Counted from the stretch's first letter, positions 31,965 through 42,255 are shown. The stretch: DNA of 50,850 nt from Minisyncoccia bacterium (GCA_049651785.1 JBASCT010000021.1:1-50850), one strand, 5' to 3'. A program made the numbers and translations. Notes: a model not told the origin generated them from the sequence alone.

Positions 31965-31990
31965 ATATACAAGATAGAGAGTTTTTCCAA

Positions 31991-32010
31991 CGTGGTATTA
32001 TTAAAAAATG
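31991..32010 (+). promoter_or_regulatory. Promoter/leaderless-start module copy A (CGTGGTATTATTAAAAAATG)
   Basis: Extended -10 TGgTATTAT with the ATG 6 nt downstream. Identical 20-mers occur at 33648 and 35912. Confidence 0.65.
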
Positions 32011-33623: not shown

Positions 33624-33647
33624 AACATCATAAAAGAATTTCTCTTG

Positions 33648-33667
33648 CGTGGTATTATTAAAAAATG
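33648..33667 (+). promoter_or_regulatory. Promoter/leaderless-start module copy B
   Basis: CGTGGTATTATTAAAAAATG, identical to copies at 31991 and 35912. Confidence 0.65.
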
Positions 33668-33748
33668 AGTTTTCCTGTGTTTACCATAACACTTGGTATC
33701 TTTGCTGGGTTTGTGCAACCAATTACAACACTAGTAGTAACAATTTAG
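33665..33748 (+). pseudogene. Truncated 5' fragment of the same membrane-protein gene family (27 codons)
   Basis: MSFPVFTITLGIFAGFVQPITTLVVTI then TAG. The first 29 nt from the module start are identical to copy A; the sequences diverge after that. Confidence 0.45.
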
Positions 33749-33829: not shown

Positions 33830-34828
33830 ATGGAAATTCGCTTTGTTGTTGCAACACATTGCAACGCTGACTGCTACTTCTGTCTCAATGAGTATGTTGG
33901 AACAAAGTCCCCAAATTTCGCACTCTACCCAACTCATTATGAAAGAATAATGAGATCGGCGGCTGATCTAGCCGTAACAGATTGCACAATTACAGGAGGA
34001 GAACCAACCTTAAGAAAAGATCTCGGTGGAGTTATGTCTGCGATACGAGGTAATGCTTCTCGTATAACACTCATTACCAACGGGTATCGTCTTCCGCAAC
34101 ACAAACTTGCGCTTGAGCAGATCGATGAGCTCCATGTTAGTTTCCATTCAATGAATGAAGGTGAGTGGAAACGAATAACTAATGTCGGAGGTGGTCCCGA
34201 ACGCGTGATTCGTGGTTTGCGTTTTGCACGATCAGTAAACGAGGAGATGAGGATTAAGCTCAACGTTGTGAGTGAGGAACAAAACTCTACCAATGAGGAG
34301 ATTGAAAAATATCTCACTCTCGCAAAGGAGATCTCAGCTGACATCAACGTTTTTAAGGAAGGATATTTTTCTTTCCTTAGTGAAATGGGTGTGGAGGTTA
34401 AGAAATCTCCTGTTCCAGTAGAACTTTGGGAATTGGAATCATTTTCCCCCATTCTTCTTGGAAGTACCCACAGAAAGAAGACTTTCTCTGTAAATGGTGT
34501 GAAAGTTTCACTTTCTCACACGAGTACCGACTTTCCTAGTTGGGATTCATGCTGGATTACTCCTATGGGACAAGCGTTTGTTGATTCTAGGCAACGCCTA
34601 CCGCTCATAGATCTCTTACCCGCCATCGAATCCGAAAACTACAAAAAAATTAGGGGTTCTCTGGATTCTCTTTTTAGAGAAGCAGAGATATGGCGCGGGT
34701 GCGGAGACGTTGGAAAGGGTAATCTACCAAAGGAGATTGAAACTCTGGGGAAAGAGCGCTCAGAAATTTTCGACACATCGAAATCTGTCAATGTTGCGAG
34801 GTTAGTGAAATGGCAAAAGCAAAGATAG
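33830..34828 (+). CDS. Radical SAM enzyme, MoaA/viperin-like
   Basis: CNADCYFC (CxxxCxxC) at residues 11-18, ITGGEPTLRKDL, LITNGYRL. The C-terminal Cys triad of MoaA is not present. GGAG 6 nt upstream of the ATG. Confidence 0.8.
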   Translation: MEIRFVVATHCNADCYFCLNEYVGTKSPNFALYPTHYERIMRSAADLAVTDCTITGGEPTLRKDLGGVMSAIRGNASRITLITNGYRLPQHKLALEQIDELHVSFHSMNEGEWKRITNVGGGPERVIRGLRFARSVNEEMRIKLNVVSEEQNSTNEEIEKYLTLAKEISADINVFKEGYFSFLSEMGVEVKKSPVPVELWELESFSPILLGSTHRKKTFSVNGVKVSLSHTSTDFPSWDSCWITPMGQAFVDSRQRLPLIDLLPAIESENYKKIRGSLDSLFREAEIWRGCGDVGKGNLPKEIETLGKERSEIFDTSKSVNVARLVKWQKQR

Positions 34829-35361
34829 TTTCTTTTGACGGACATGATTGTGTCGGCAAGACATCTCTGATGAGCGCGACTGTTCACGCGCTTTCAGAGA
34901 AAGGTCTTTCGGTTACAATGTTCAGGTCAGTAAATAAGGACTTTGAGACAGAGCGTCTGCGTCACTCAGAAGTATCTCAGAACATTTGGTTCTATGTGAG
35001 CGCATGGTTGAACACTGAAAAGGAAATCCTTAAATCAGTAGATTCAACAAACTTCATCTTCATCGACAGGTCTTATTACTCGACCATGGTTCTTGCTGGG
35101 GCCCTTGACCTCTATTTTCCTCATTTTCTCCTTCAAACATTCTTGAAGCCAGACTATGCGTTTTGGGTTCAGGTTAGTGAAGAGGAGAGAATGAGACGAC
35201 TCGAAAGAAAAAGAGCCACACGAGAGGACTACATAACCGTAAACGCCACACTCATAAGTAAGGCCGATCTGATTTACACATCCTTGGGGCTACTTCCGCT
35301 TAATAACGAGGGCCCACTTCAGGATGGAGCGCAAAGGCTTTCGGCGATTCTCCTTCGCTAA
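34810..35361 (+). CDS. Thymidylate-kinase-like P-loop nucleotide kinase
   Basis: FDGHDCVGKTS P-loop, FIFIDRSYYST (DR motif), PDYAFWVQVSEEERMRRLERKR lid-like region. 19-nt overlap with the radical SAM gene. Confidence 0.7.
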   Translation: MAKAKIVSFDGHDCVGKTSLMSATVHALSEKGLSVTMFRSVNKDFETERLRHSEVSQNIWFYVSAWLNTEKEILKSVDSTNFIFIDRSYYSTMVLAGALDLYFPHFLLQTFLKPDYAFWVQVSEEERMRRLERKRATREDYITVNATLISKADLIYTSLGLLPLNNEGPLQDGAQRLSAILLR

Positions 35362-35365
35362 TTAT

Positions 35366-35401
35366 AACTGCGTACTGTAAAATTATGGTACGCAGTTTTT
35401 T
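35366..35401 (+). terminator. Rho-independent terminator
   Basis: aactgcgtac-(12-nt loop)-gtacgcagtt running into tttttt. Confidence 0.7.
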
Positions 35402-35893
35402 ATGAAATTGTTATCAAAAAAAGTAGTCAATCTTAATAATTCTAATTTGAACGTCTCTATTTTTAAGATAGAGAGCGATAGTGACCTTTTTGGTGCAAGT
35501 CGAGTGTATGTACTAGGGGTAAATAAGGGCGGTTCAGTCTGCATAATTTTCAATGCAAAGAGAAAAATATGGGGTTTCCCAGGAGGTCATATAGACGAAG
35601 GCGAATCAGTGACAGAGGCAATAAAACGAGAAAGCATGGAAGAATGCGGATATTCTCTTGAGATTGTTGAGCCAAAATTTGTTATTGAAAATGTTGTTGA
35701 TGATAAGGTTGAGAAACAGGTAATATGTTTTGGCAGATTTGAACATAATATCAATAAGCTTAACGCAGCAGAAGGGGAGACTGTTACAGATGTAAGGTTT
35801 GTGAATCTGTCCGAATTAAACACACTTATTTCTTTGCCTCAAGTTTGGTCAGAAATAATTGAGGAATTTGAATTGTGGTTGAAAAACACCTAA
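35402..35893 (+). CDS. Nudix hydrolase
   Basis: Complete Nudix box GGHIDEGESVTEAIKRESMEECGY. Confidence 0.85.
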   Translation: MKLLSKKVVNLNNSNLNVSIFKIESDSDLFGASRVYVLGVNKGGSVCIIFNAKRKIWGFPGGHIDEGESVTEAIKRESMEECGYSLEIVEPKFVIENVVDDKVEKQVICFGRFEHNINKLNAAEGETVTDVRFVNLSELNTLISLPQVWSEIIEEFELWLKNT

Positions 35894-35911
35894 AAATAAC
35901 AAATCTCCTAG

Positions 35912-35931
35912 CGTGGTATTATTAAAAAATG
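35912..35931 (+). promoter_or_regulatory. Promoter/leaderless-start module copy C
   Basis: CGTGGTATTATTAAAAAATG. Here the ATG opens the 161-aa membrane protein gene. Confidence 0.65.
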
Positions 35932-39289: not shown

Positions 39290-40504
39290 ATGCTCAAACG
39301 CATTACTGGATATGATTATTCTCCTGATTTAGAAGAAGTAGAGGTTATCGAGAGAAAGGGGATTGGCCATCCAGATAGCGTTGCAGACATAATTGCCGAA
39401 TCATTTTCAAATGATTATTCAAAATATTATCAAAAAAAATACGGCAAAATTTTAAATCACTGGTTTGATAAAGTTTTAATTTCTGGAGGGGAAGCTATCC
39501 TTAGACCTGGATTTGGTAGTATTATCAAAAAACCAAAGGTATATCTTTTTGGCAAAATAACCAGAGTAAGCAATGACGATTTAAATATTGAAGAATTTTT
39601 TAAAATTACAGTTTTTAGGGTAATGCGCGATATATTCGGTATTGAAGATGAAATAATGCCAGATATTGTTGTAGATACCAACTCTGGAGTCGGAGCAGAA
39701 CACCCTATAAGTTTTTATAATACCAATGTTTATGATATTACTAAAGAGAGTGATGACTTAGTTTCAAACGACACAATTTTCTGCAATGGATACTATCCAT
39801 ATACTAAATTAGAACATTACGTTTGTGACCTTGAAAATTATATTAACTCCAAATCATTTAAAGAAAATCATTATTATACTGGTTTTGATGTTAAGGTTCT
39901 TGCTAAACGAATTAAAAATAATATAGATATCACGGTATGCATTCCTTTTATTGCGGCCAGAACAGAATCTTGGGCATTATATTTTGAATTAAAGAAAAAC
40001 ATTGAAAATGATCTTTACTTTTTTACTAAAAAATTTAAGTGGGACAGCGTCAATATACACCTAAACACAAAGGATCGAGAAGGCAAGGGCTTTTTAACTT
40101 TATATGGAAGCGCCTTCGACAAGGGTGATTTTGGTGTGGTAGGTAGGGGAAATAGATATTTGGGCTTCATCACCTCTTGTCGTGGGGAAACCCAAGAAGC
40201 TTATAGTGGAAAAAACCCAGTTATTCACTCGGGAAAATTATTCTCGATAATAGCTCATCGTATTGCAAGAAAGATAAGTATTCTAGATGGTGGTCCTGTT
40301 AAGGTTATTATATGTATCAATAACGGGTCTCCTATTAAAGAACCAGAATCTGTATTTGTATTTACTAAAGATAAGAAAATATCTGATCAGCATATAAGAG
40401 GATTATTGCTCAACGAATTTAATAATATTCACAATATTACTACTCACATTATTAATTTAAATCCAGTAGAAGAGTTTGTTACAAAAAGCATTCTACTATC
40501 ATAA
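39290..40504 (+). CDS. Archaeal-type S-adenosylmethionine synthetase (MAT, PF01941-like) homolog
   Basis: ERKGIGHPDSVADIIAE, SNDTIFCNGYYP, GDFGVVGRGNR and SGKNPVIHSGK align by eye to the conserved blocks of archaeal MAT. Confidence 0.7.
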   Translation: MLKRITGYDYSPDLEEVEVIERKGIGHPDSVADIIAESFSNDYSKYYQKKYGKILNHWFDKVLISGGEAILRPGFGSIIKKPKVYLFGKITRVSNDDLNIEEFFKITVFRVMRDIFGIEDEIMPDIVVDTNSGVGAEHPISFYNTNVYDITKESDDLVSNDTIFCNGYYPYTKLEHYVCDLENYINSKSFKENHYYTGFDVKVLAKRIKNNIDITVCIPFIAARTESWALYFELKKNIENDLYFFTKKFKWDSVNIHLNTKDREGKGFLTLYGSAFDKGDFGVVGRGNRYLGFITSCRGETQEAYSGKNPVIHSGKLFSIIAHRIARKISILDGGPVKVIICINNGSPIKEPESVFVFTKDKKISDQHIRGLLLNEFNNIHNITTHIINLNPVEEFVTKSILLS

Positions 40505-40510
40505 AATATT

Positions 40511-41374
40511 ATGCATATATTGGTTTCTTTATTTCACACTACTATCGATTTGCCCAGCTTATATGTTTTTGACTCTGATTTGAATCCAGTACTTAAATTT
40601 GCAAATGAATACAGAAACATCAAAGGATTGTTTTTAAGTAAAAGTTTTATATATGCCGGCTATAAGGATGAAAATAATGATTGTTGGCTGTTAATATTTT
40701 CCAAGCAATTTTTTAAACTTGTAAATAAATGTTTACTAATAAACACCATTGACATACACTCCATCTACATAACGAATAATCTGTTGTATGTAGTATCAAG
40801 TGGGACAAACAGTATTTATGTGTATAAAATTGATAACTTGGAGAATCTGAATAAAGCCAATCCCATCAGTAACATAAAAACATTAATTACTGATATAGAC
40901 AATGAAGACATTCTTCATTTAAACAGTATTTATATAAAAGAAAACAACGACTTATTTATTACGGGTTTTGGAGGCAAGAAGCAGGGGGAATGGAATAAAG
41001 AATGCAATGGCTTCATATTGAACATTAAGCAGAATATAGTACTATTGGATGGAATATTTCACCCGCACTCATTATTTTTTAGAGACTCTGATATGTGGTT
41101 TTGTGAATCTGGTAAAAAAAGAGTATATAAAAATAAAGAAATCGTGGTGGATAAAGCAGATGGGTATACTAGGGGTCTCGCTCTTTCTGAGAACGGCAAG
41201 TTTCTATTACTAGGAACTTCTACTTCACGTATTTATGGTCAAGAAGAGGTTGACCTAAAAACAAGTGGGGTTCATAAATTTGAAATAAATGAAAAATCAT
41301 TTTTAGTGCCTGTAAAGTCATTTTATTTTAAAGATACACAGGCGGAGATTTATGACTTAATAGAGTTAAGATGA
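40511..41374 (+). CDS. DUF4915/TIGR03032-like beta-propeller protein
   Basis: LHLNSIY, HPHSLFFRDSDMWFCESGKKRV, GYTRGLAL and EIYDLIEL resemble the conserved blocks I recall for that family. Assigned from memory only. Confidence 0.5.
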   Translation: MHILVSLFHTTIDLPSLYVFDSDLNPVLKFANEYRNIKGLFLSKSFIYAGYKDENNDCWLLIFSKQFFKLVNKCLLINTIDIHSIYITNNLLYVVSSGTNSIYVYKIDNLENLNKANPISNIKTLITDIDNEDILHLNSIYIKENNDLFITGFGGKKQGEWNKECNGFILNIKQNIVLLDGIFHPHSLFFRDSDMWFCESGKKRVYKNKEIVVDKADGYTRGLALSENGKFLLLGTSTSRIYGQEEVDLKTSGVHKFEINEKSFLVPVKSFYFKDTQAEIYDLIELR

Positions 41375-42255
41375 AAAAAACGATAACTTATATTGGAATA
41401 TCGCCGTTTAATAGTAGTCCTAGAATGGGAGGCCTGAGGACAATGCTATACACATATGTTTTTACTCGTCATAATAATGGACTTATATATTTAAAATCAG
41501 ATGATACTAATCCAGGCAGTAGAATTAAGGACAACTATTATTCCCAAGTTAAGTTTTTAAATGCGTGCGGCTTAAACTTTGAAAGCAATGAGCTAAAGAA
41601 TCCTAGTGGATCATCAATTTTTCAATCTGAAAATAGCACAGTTTATACTGAATATTTAAATAAATTAGTTGATTGTGGGCTGACATCTGAAAAAGATAGC
41701 TTAGTCTCTTTAGATATTAGAGCAATAATTGATTATTTAAAATTGAAAAACATAACCATACACGATTTATTAAGGGGTGACATAAATTTTAAAGCAGATA
41801 GATTGGGTTATGAATATATACCACTATATTCTCGCAGTAAAAAAAGGTTTTTCTTCCATCTCCCAACTATTATTGATGAGTCAATCTACGGAACCACCCT
41901 GCTTATAAGAGGCGAAGATAAAATTTCTACAGCCCCGATTCATGAAATTTTAAAAAAATTCTTTTTGTTAGAGAAGCAAGATTATCTACACCTACCTTTA
42001 TTGTTAGACAAATCAACAAATAAAAGAATAAAAAGTGATAATTATTTAGTAAGCGAGATGGTCAAAAAGTACCCAACCCCTGTAGTGGTAGCATACTTAC
42101 TTTTATCTGGTTATAGGAGTAGAAGGTTTAAATATGTTTCATTAAGTGAATTTACTGAAGATTTCAATTATCACAAATTGAAAAAGCAGTCCGGAAAGTT
42201 TTATGAGGAAGATCTTATTAAAATATCCGAAAAATACCGTAAGCTAATTAAATAG
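41371..42255 (+). CDS. GluRS/GluQRS-like class I catalytic-domain paralog with degenerate HIGH and KMSKS
   Basis: ISPFNSSPRMGGLRTMLYTYVF (HIGH position reads PRMG), FQSE, LLIRGEDKISTAPIHE, YLHLPLLLD..NKRIKS. 294 aa with no anticodon-binding domain. ATGA overlap with the upstream gene. Confidence 0.6.
   Translation: MKKTITYIGISPFNSSPRMGGLRTMLYTYVFTRHNNGLIYLKSDDTNPGSRIKDNYYSQVKFLNACGLNFESNELKNPSGSSIFQSENSTVYTEYLNKLVDCGLTSEKDSLVSLDIRAIIDYLKLKNITIHDLLRGDINFKADRLGYEYIPLYSRSKKRFFFHLPTIIDESIYGTTLLIRGEDKISTAPIHEILKKFFLLEKQDYLHLPLLLDKSTNKRIKSDNYLVSEMVKKYPTPVVVAYLLLSGYRSRRFKYVSLSEFTEDFNYHKLKKQSGKFYEEDLIKISEKYRKLIK

Follow-up and report, generated by a model that had tools for sequence, protein, structure and literature searches.

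A candidate nucleotide-modifying cassette built around an unnamed MoaA-branch radical SAM family in a Minisyncoccia bacterium

The window analyzed here is a whole 50,850-nt stretch of DNA from a Minisyncoccia bacterium (GCA_049651785.1 JBASCT010000021.1:1-50850), in which three consecutive genes encode a radical S-adenosylmethionine (SAM) enzyme, a thymidylate kinase-like (Tmk-like) kinase and a Nudix hydrolase. Comparison with related loci supports the view that the three genes would operate as a functional unit aimed at nucleotides. Our best explanation, which we hold tentatively and with slightly less than even confidence, is that the cassette is by analogy a minimal, self-protected maker of a ribose-modified nucleotide or nucleoside analog, following the logic of thmABC, the 4'-thiothymidine cluster of Photorhabdus asymbiotica published in October 2025 (PMC12691670). 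The enzyme family is new, whereas the architecture of radical SAM enzyme, kinase and Nudix hydrolase is already known from thmABC. The elements of the cassette, with positions counted from the first nucleotide of the window, are as follows:

33830-34828, + strand, radical SAM gene, 332 aa
34810-35361, + strand, Tmk-like kinase gene, 183 aa
35366-35401, + strand, terminator-like hairpin and T-run, with a 14-bp stem and a 4-nt loop
35402-35893, + strand, Nudix gene, 163 aa

The three open reading frames (ORFs), the 19-nt overlap between the stop of the radical SAM gene and the start of the kinase gene (34810-34828), and the CNADCYFC, TGGEPTL, and TNGY blocks of the 332-aa protein had all been reported in a preliminary description of this DNA and were confirmed here. 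We compared the cassette across 12 distinct loci, comprising the window and the loci that we designate L001-L005, L007-L009, and L224-L226. A Tmk-like kinase gene directly follows the radical SAM gene in all 12, the two genes overlapping by 4-26 nt in seven, and a dedicated Nudix gene follows the kinase gene in nine, three of which are visible only when TGA is read as glycine. The flanking genes differ at all 12 loci and include tRNA synthetases, DnaK/DnaJ, RuvC, restriction-modification genes (L005 and L226), integrases together with a GAPS4-type PDDEXK protein (L008), conjugation-type ATPases and archaeal-type regulators. The proposal that the trio is a nucleotide-directed unit is supported by the constant pairing of radical SAM and kinase genes, usually with the Nudix gene, amid unrelated flanks in diverged relatives.

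The radical SAM enzyme scored 57 bits against Pfam Radical_SAM. In an alignment of 18 sequences of its family, the blocks CNxxCYFCLNEYxGxK, TGGEP, NG, and ELHxSxHS are invariant, as are the cysteines C11, C15, and C18 of the CX3CX2C motif, the residues G56-G57-E58, and the basic residues K26, R62, R134, R310, H102, and H106. No cysteine is conserved after residue 18 in these 18 sequences, in agreement with the earlier remark that the enzyme is missing the C-terminal cysteine triad of the auxiliary cluster, and the C-terminal GG of MoaA is also absent from the enzyme. Scores against curated profiles of the two families to which the enzyme had been likened fell below the cutoffs throughout: 90.7 bits against TIGR02666 (cutoff 284), 99.4 bits against TIGR02668 (cutoff 325), and 83.7 bits against NF001199 (cutoff 231) for MoaA, with matches confined to residues 2-176, and 57.2 bits against NF038283 (cutoff 180) for viperin. 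The enzyme also matched the PADLOC models for prokaryotic viperins (pVip) with 56 bits over residues 3-163 only; we regard this match as generic because an unrelated radical SAM/SPASM protein, used as a control, reached 49 bits on the same models.

A Foldseek search with an AlphaFold2 model of the enzyme (mean pLDDT 88.7) returned MoaA first (TM-score 0.64-0.67), with the viperins (0.50-0.57) and the SuiB, BlsE, DesII, and AbmM structures listed after them all ranking behind it. Of the earlier designation as MoaA/viperin-like, the MoaA-like fold therefore stands, while membership of either family does not, as every curated cutoff was failed. Based on the model, we describe the enzyme as MoaA-like in its predicted fold with the second cluster lost. 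The substrate of MoaA is GTP, and its residues R17, R266, and R268, which are replaced in the mutant structure 2FB2 (as its title indicates), are its triphosphate-binding arginines. R4 of the radical SAM enzyme aligns to R17 of MoaA and is present in at least 90% of the family sequences. Taken together, a fold closest to that of a GTP enzyme, the alignment of R4 with R17 and the invariant basic residues point to a nucleotide-binding ancestry.

The position of the family was assessed in a tree of 58 sequences and 275 columns, built by neighbor-joining only, with 200 bootstraps and with viperins sampled from one clade. The family formed a separate monophyletic clade (95% bootstrap) that was not nested in canonical MoaA; it grouped with the viperins in 3.5% of the bootstraps and with a sister family (see below) in 46% (31-46% when the tree that includes ThmA is counted). 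Its mean distance was smallest to the sister family (2.03), followed by MoaA (2.50) and the viperins (2.90). Viperin or pVip membership was rejected on the cutoff, the tree and the generic-match control; branching with viperins and not with the MoaA outgroup is the criterion applied in bioRxiv 10.1101/2023.09.13.557418. On these sequence-level grounds, we assign the enzyme to a small, unnamed family of the MoaA branch that is neither MoaA nor viperin.

The family is patchily distributed, and several of its loci lie near restriction-modification, integrase, ATPase-TPR, caspase or mobile-element genes. A search of 5.8 billion protein clusters found 21 members at E <1e-57, after which E-values jumped to 1e-13, and a profile search of 1.84 billion representatives found ~10 further members. 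Among 185,579 species genomes, just 2 were positive, and a scan of metagenome contigs added only two short fragments. No members were found in IMG/VR, GenBank phages or PLSDB plasmids, leaving a phage or plasmid origin without support, and neither this family nor its sister family has a model in PADLOC, which gave generic matches only.

The product of the second gene scored 43.9 bits against Pfam Thymidylate_kin (PF02223). Its P-loop (FDGHDCVGKT), DR motif and arginine-rich lid agree with the earlier description as a P-loop kinase with Tmk-like motifs. Residues G11, K17, D86-R87, R127, and R130 are conserved; across 10 kinase orthologs the P-loop (in the form FxGHDGxGK(T/S)), DR motif and lid are invariant, and solved Tmk structures are matched by the family profile over its full length (E 4e-10). 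Against the dTMP-kinase equivalog model TIGR00041, the kinase reached 34.9 bits (cutoff 83.25), and the position aligned to the thymine-contacting arginine of Tmk is alanine, cysteine, or tryptophan in the cassette kinases. Matches to the PADLOC models VakA (30.6 bits) and PDC-M51B (52.8 bits) were also obtained. A homolog search with the kinase alone returned three proteins only, because divergence within the kinase family exceeds what the word index can detect. The cassette kinases form their own divergent group that co-evolves with the radical SAM enzyme, and we consider the protein, from its sequence features, to be a nucleoside monophosphate (NMP) kinase of the thymidylate kinase fold whose translation is coupled to that of the radical SAM gene.

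The third protein contains a complete Nudix box (GHIDEGESVTEAIKRESMEECGY, pattern GX5EX7REUXEEXGU) and scored 45.1 bits against PF00293. It belongs to a dedicated, co-evolving orthologous group with the signature RVY...IYNSKRxIWGFPGGH (best solved relatives: CT771 and a putative CTP pyrophosphohydrolase) and also matches PADLOC PDC-S07. The hairpin terminator that had been noted ahead of the complete Nudix gene was recovered as a 14-bp hairpin at 35366-35397, with a T-run behind it that reaches up to the ATG of the Nudix gene. Strong hairpins with a T-run occupy the same position in three relatives (L001:7541-7589, L002:7526-7586, and L008:1594-1643) and one without a T-run does so in a fourth (L226:3561-3612); the position is kept while the sequences of the five hairpins are unrelated, and in both the window and L001 no more than a few bases lie between the end of the hairpin and the start codon of the Nudix gene. 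This arrangement indicates that the radical SAM and kinase genes are coupled and that the Nudix gene is set apart from them.

The strongest argument for a free nucleotide substrate comes from the sister family, the closest outgroup by sequence distance, which comprises MoaA-like radical SAM proteins of ~300 aa and is, to our knowledge, undescribed. Its members occur in Woesearchaeota (DPANN), several phyla of the Candidate Phyla Radiation (CPR), uncultured gut Clostridia and Alphaproteobacteria. Unlike the cassette family, which has SWDSCW(I/V)TPxG at this point, the sister family has retained, at the positions of the MoaA triad, three C-terminal cysteines (NNDLFITPDGxIKxC), and it usually has an aminotransferase, which the cassette family also lacks. 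Species genomes were scanned with the sister family, and neighbors were identified with iterated custom hidden Markov models (HMMs), a subset being confirmed with Pfam. Among the 22 closest loci, 17 have a Nudix gene within 110 nt, 12 have the radical SAM protein fused to a DegT-type aminotransferase and four have it beside one; the radical SAM genes are often trailed by one or two Nudix genes. Individual loci encode a Nudix-Tmk fusion protein (L011), a CYTH-like neighbor (L146), or, in Clostridium sp. CAG:508 (L253) and from consecutive genes, a radical SAM enzyme, an HD phosphohydrolase, a Tmk-like kinase and a carbamoyltransferase. The sister family resembles Pur10/Pur4/Pur7 of puromycin biosynthesis, and looks like an amino-deoxy-nucleotide pathway. 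Nudix, HD, CYTH, Tmk-like and Gre-like genes all occur in its neighborhoods, so that the association of this radical SAM branch with nucleotide kinases and with pyrophosphatases or phosphohydrolases is general. The sister-family loci and the Gre-like genes next to sister radical SAM genes are:

L012:1579-4674, sister-family locus
L234:4989-8055, sister-family locus
L011:4347-8384, sister-family locus
L253:4938-9218, sister-family locus
~20 more sister-family loci within L227-L257
L013:1200-1694, - strand, Gre-like gene
L249:6594-7070, Gre-like gene
L256:8164-8712, Gre-like gene
L239:7171-7713, Gre-like gene

The preliminary description did not recognize the architecture of the trio as a described one, a point that no longer holds, as thmABC is a published cassette with a radical SAM enzyme, P-loop kinase and Nudix hydrolase in the same order. 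In that work, thmA (radical SAM), thmB (an AbmG-like nucleoside kinase) and thmC (a nucleoside triphosphatase) suffice for 4'-thiothymidine production in E. coli, and thmC alone gives resistance (PMC12691670). We located the cluster in P. asymbiotica DSM 15149 (L306) through a primer given in the supplement of the paper:

L306:4998-7167, - strand, thmABC of Photorhabdus asymbiotica DSM 15149

At this locus the order is radical SAM, kinase (with a 4-nt overlap) and Nudix. The resemblance to our cassette therefore includes a P-loop kinase gene overlapping the radical SAM gene, a Nudix gene after a short spacer, and a mobile unit with varying flanks. The proteins themselves are of different kinds: ThmC is a NudI-type Nudix protein (253 bits), ThmB is AbmG/deoxynucleoside kinase-like where the cassette kinase is Tmk-like, and ThmA belongs to the viperin branch (it joins viperins at 79% bootstrap and reaches 99 bits on the pVip-with-kinase model), whereas the cassette enzyme lies on the MoaA branch, the two grouping in 0 of 100 bootstraps. 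The Nudix type of ThmC and the viperin-branch placement of ThmA are findings of the present analysis. The hosts also differ, being gamma-proteobacteria for thmABC and CPR-type bacteria for the cassette. We read the match as an analogy, in which the same architecture has been assembled independently from different lineages.

The product of viperin and pVip is a 3'-deoxy-3',4'-didehydro nucleoside triphosphate (ddhNTP). The cassette resembles these systems in having a single-cluster radical SAM enzyme beside an NMP kinase, one that matches VakA, and in the nucleoside triphosphate (NTP) expected as substrate; it differs in that the C-terminal domain of its radical SAM enzyme appears to be MoaA-like. 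In viperins a C-terminal extension with the beta-8 nucleobase loop closes a partial (beta-alpha)6 barrel. A kinase lies within three genes of 12% of bacterial viperins and is mostly CMPK2-related, and MoaA served as outgroup and inactive control in the same study, which makes no mention of a Nudix partner in viperin systems (bioRxiv 10.1101/2023.09.13.557418). With MoaA, the enzyme shares its best fold and profile matches, the aligned R4/R17 position and a homologous beta-rich C-terminal domain, although it lacks the cysteines of the auxiliary [4Fe-4S] cluster, the C-terminal GG, a molybdenum cofactor (Moco) context and, judging by the sequence alignment, equivalents of R266 and R268. The best single-sequence match in the PDB was AbmM (8WM2, 34.9 bits), which was also the third-best profile match (58 bits), the similarity being confined to the N-terminal 105-145 residues. 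AbmM and AbmG of the albomycin pathway resemble the cassette as a radical SAM enzyme and a nucleoside kinase that act jointly on a nucleotide ribose; AbmM reportedly uses an FeS cluster as sulfur donor (PMC12691670), whereas the cassette enzyme has only the SAM cluster, and AbmG is another kind of kinase. Our literature searches returned nothing relevant on MoaA-like anti-phage enzymes, viperin with Nudix, PDC-M51, or 8WM2.

The domain identities, the loss of the cluster, the conserved linkage and the match in architecture to thmABC are observed; from them we infer what kind of substrate the cassette uses, its chemistry, the direction in which it runs and its role in the cell. The radical SAM enzyme would accept a nucleoside di- or triphosphate into a pocket of the MoaA type, and its 5'-deoxyadenosyl radical would take a hydrogen from the ribose. 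With no auxiliary cluster that could take up an electron or hold the base, the resulting radical would most likely be resolved by elimination and reduction, as in viperin, rather than by the cyclization of MoaA or a twitch-type dehydrogenation; this route seems to be favored by the loss, relative to the sister family, of both the auxiliary cluster and the aminotransferase partner. The kinase would act at the NMP level, where it could either supply the substrate, as CMPK2 does for viperin, or activate an intermediate, as AbmG and ThmB do. The Nudix protein would cut the analog triphosphate to the monophosphate, sparing the polymerases of the producer, as shown for ThmC, and might also form the product that is released.

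Several points weigh against this explanation. The substrate specificity of the Nudix protein is unreadable from sequence. The radical SAM enzyme and ThmA are 21% identical over 248 aa, a generic level, the kinases match at E 0.25, and the Nudix proteins match in the Nudix box alone; orthology with ThmA, ThmB, and ThmC was tested on the recovered locus and all three proteins failed, so that 4'-thiothymidine as a product is not transferable to the cassette. In an alignment made via the sister family, the positions of MoaA R266 and R268 are non-basic in the cassette family. It is feasible that the kinase is simply the ordinary Tmk of the organism. The cassette has no conserved exporter or phosphatase, and the mobile and defense-type neighbors are no more than suggestive of a defense island. 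Lastly, the Nudix gene is missing from three of the 12 loci (L003, L225, and L007). In two of these its place is taken by a gene for an orthologous ATPase-TPR protein of 880-900 aa (L003:7656-10301 and L225:2254-4968; 33% identity over 834 aa), followed in L225 by genes for a radical SAM/SPASM protein and a caspase-family peptidase, while L007 has neither the Nudix nor the ATPase-TPR protein.

Exactly these three Nudix-less loci have genes for Gre-like transcript-cleavage factors within a few genes of the cassette:

L003:11635-12141, GreA/GreB-like factor
L007:6759-7253, - strand, GreA/GreB-like factor
L225:118-636, GreA/GreB-like factor

The canonical Gre tip is acidic; the factors of L003 and L225 have the tip motif G(G/P)xHENAxWE. 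Their presence hints that the product stalls RNA polymerase, and the Nudix protein, the insulating hairpin and the Gre-like factors of the Nudix-less loci would all fit a product dangerous to the cell's own polymerases. As the thmABC precedent offers the best explanation of the Nudix protein, the product could, by analogy, be a released antimetabolite, and we lean slightly toward an antimetabolite that serves in conflict, rather than an inducible antiviral.

The inducible antiviral is possible, if rather unlikely. Here the radical SAM enzyme would, like viperin with CMPK2, make a ddhNTP-like chain terminator against phage polymerases, the kinase would raise the supply of substrate, and the Nudix protein, a Gre-like factor or an ATPase-TPR sensor would limit self-damage or reset the nucleotide pool. 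The single cluster of the enzyme, the established linkage of viperins with kinases (bioRxiv 10.1101/2023.09.13.557418), the kinase matches to VakA and PDC-M51B and the Nudix match to PDC-S07 are consistent with such a role, as are the defense-type neighbors at L005, L226, L008, L003, and L225 and the nearby Gre-like factors, which would suit a transcription-stalling product. Yet the curated threshold, the tree and the ranking of fold matches do not place the enzyme among the viperins, its pVip scores reflect similarity of the generic radical SAM core, and a product-destroying Nudix protein lies outside known pVip systems and is better explained by the thmC precedent. The absence of the family from the PADLOC, phage and plasmid collections also deprives this reading of the hint of an arms race that might be expected.

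We are considerably more doubtful of a housekeeping or salvage operon in a bacterium with a reduced genome, in which an ordinary dTMP kinase and a house-cleaning Nudix protein would accompany a radical SAM enzyme with an unrelated job, such as RNA/tRNA modification or cofactor synthesis. CPR genomes rely on salvage, the flanks often contain aminoacyl-tRNA synthetases, DnaK/DnaJ, and RuvC, and the automatic names given to family members by the Joint Genome Institute (JGI) include "wyosine synthetase" and "activating enzyme." Set against these points, a family found in two species genomes and ~21 clusters is far too rare for housekeeping, and the kinase scores well under the dTMP-kinase cutoff (34.9 vs. 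83) and co-evolves with the radical SAM enzyme. The dedicated Nudix group, the translational coupling of the radical SAM and kinase genes, and the Nudix-Tmk fusion beside a sister radical SAM enzyme likewise speak against this reading.

Two further candidates were rejected as highly improbable. A canonical MoaA (GTP 3',8-cyclase) for Moco synthesis would account for the top curated-model and fold matches, but the scores (under a third of the TIGR02666 and TIGR02668 cutoffs), their restriction to residues 2-176, the missing cysteine triad and C-terminal GG, the separate clade and the lack of Moco neighbors all contradict it; a non-exhaustive Pfam scan of 30 window ORFs turned up no molybdopterin gene, in keeping with the preliminary description, and none was seen in the 12 related loci. 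Equally improbable is a maturase of a ribosomally synthesized and post-translationally modified peptide (RiPP) acting on the small hydrophobic ORF of 27 aa (33665-33748) that lies between a promoter-like repeat and the radical SAM gene, as SPASM and twitch cysteines are absent from the enzyme, its conserved partners are nucleotide enzymes, and the ORF is a truncated paralog of the ORF at 32008 and is missing upstream of the radical SAM gene in relatives (in L001, only a 118-nt gap separates a tRNA synthetase gene from the radical SAM gene).

Returning to the cassette as a self-protected maker of a nucleotide analog, its importance would lie in the record of ribose-rewriting radical SAM enzymes, which have already yielded an effector of innate immunity (viperin, ddhCTP) and antibiotics (albomycin, 4'-thiothymidine). 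Here an unnamed MoaA-branch family is firmly tied to a kinase and to a Nudix protein in CPR and other reduced-genome microbes, whose chemistry is almost unexplored, and the cassette probably makes a nucleotide analog not yet seen. Counting viperin-CMPK2, thmABC, and the cassette, the architecture has been invented independently three times, which suggests that a radical SAM enzyme, a kinase and a pyrophosphatase are a general recipe for making toxic nucleotides safely. With three genes in ~2 kb, the cassette is directly testable, and the larger sister family with its aminotransferase fusions (gut Clostridia, CPR, DPANN) widens the same theme.

A separate observation concerns the Nudix genes of three relatives, which contain 10 (L002), 10 (L004, the same as L307) and 7 (L009) in-frame TGA codons at conserved glycines:

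L002:7586-8071, TGA-bearing Nudix gene
L004:7580-8098 (= L307), TGA-bearing Nudix gene
L009:6555-7079, TGA-bearing Nudix gene

Five of the TGA codons fall at columns shared by all three genes, including the invariant glycines of GFPGG and EExG, and there are no in-frame TAA or TAG codons; the proteins are 47-56% identical to each other. The in-frame TGA at glycine implies that these genes are readable only under genetic code 25. No TGA was found in the adjacent radical SAM and kinase genes of the same loci. L002 comes from a code-25 genome, its flanks having 89 TGA vs. 128 GGN codons (41% of neighboring glycine codons are TGA), and the chance of 23 glycine codons all avoiding TGA there is ~5e-6. 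The 21-kb L004/L307 locus has 393 GGN codons, 0 in-frame TGA codons and six genes that end in TGA; L009 likewise lies in DNA free of in-frame TGA, with TGA ending other genes. Both resemble standard-code DNA, where the Nudix gene would be untranslatable. The pattern could stem from a recent transfer out of organisms that use code 25, from mobile elements whose hosts use it, or from deliberate gating of the antidote by the code. We think it improbable that the cassette is a toxin-antidote pair gated by genetic code, with the Nudix protein as presumed antidote and the radical SAM enzyme and kinase as presumed toxin makers, and, more broadly, a second independent origin of radical SAM nucleotide warfare on the MoaA branch. 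If it were, anything that switched TGA decoding off, such as a phage restoring TGA termination or transfer to a standard-code cell, would stop the antidote while the toxin continued.

The remaining features of the window concern the surroundings of the cassette:

33647-33667, + strand, copy 2 of a promoter-like 21-nt repeat, whose extended -10-like element, TGGTATTAT, ends 8 nt before an ATG
33665-33748, small hydrophobic ORF of 27 aa, upstream of the radical SAM gene and after the promoter-like repeat
39290-40504, S-adenosylmethionine synthetase of archaeal type (PF01941, 273 bits), encoded 3.4 kb downstream from the gene for the radical SAM enzyme
40511-41374, DUF4915 protein, adjoining the next protein, both just upstream of the methionyl-tRNA synthetase (MetRS) and tRNA-Met genes
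41371-42255, 294-aa protein limited to the class I Glu/Gln-tRNA synthetase catalytic domain

The S-adenosylmethionine synthetase is not conserved beside the cassette in the relatives, and no Gre homolog was found in the window. The 21-nt repeat (GCGTGGTATTATTAAAAAATG) has three copies in the window (31990-32010 with one mismatch, 33647-33667, and 35911-35931) where none would be expected by chance. All copies terminate in ATG with the -10-like element 8 nt before it, which points to leaderless starts. Copies 1 and 2 each follow a terminator hairpin and each open one of two paralogous small hydrophobic ORFs (MSFPVF(S/T)ITLG..., 38 and 27 aa), the shorter resembling a truncated duplicate of the ORF at 32008 in the alignment of the copies and in translation; copy 3 opens a membrane ORF of 161 aa. 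Copy 2 lies 164 nt upstream of the radical SAM gene, directly after the terminator of a GNAT gene, and is the putative promoter of the cassette. Of the "captured promoter module" proposed earlier, the repeat is therefore real and its promoter role is a prediction. The further suggestion that the unit sits in an accessory cassette agrees in part with a fall in GC content from ~52% (1-32 kb) to 31-45% (32-44 kb), with steps at ~32 kb and again at ~44000, but the low-GC stretch also holds MetRS. Aminoacyl-tRNA synthetase genes occur on both sides of the step, those for the leucyl and alanyl enzymes (LeuRS, AlaRS) having 49-51% GC and that for MetRS 35%, and the step could reflect either a large acquired island or a chimeric assembly. 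The window also encodes short aminoacyl-tRNA synthetases, ribosomal proteins and DnaK, giving it a CPR-like look.

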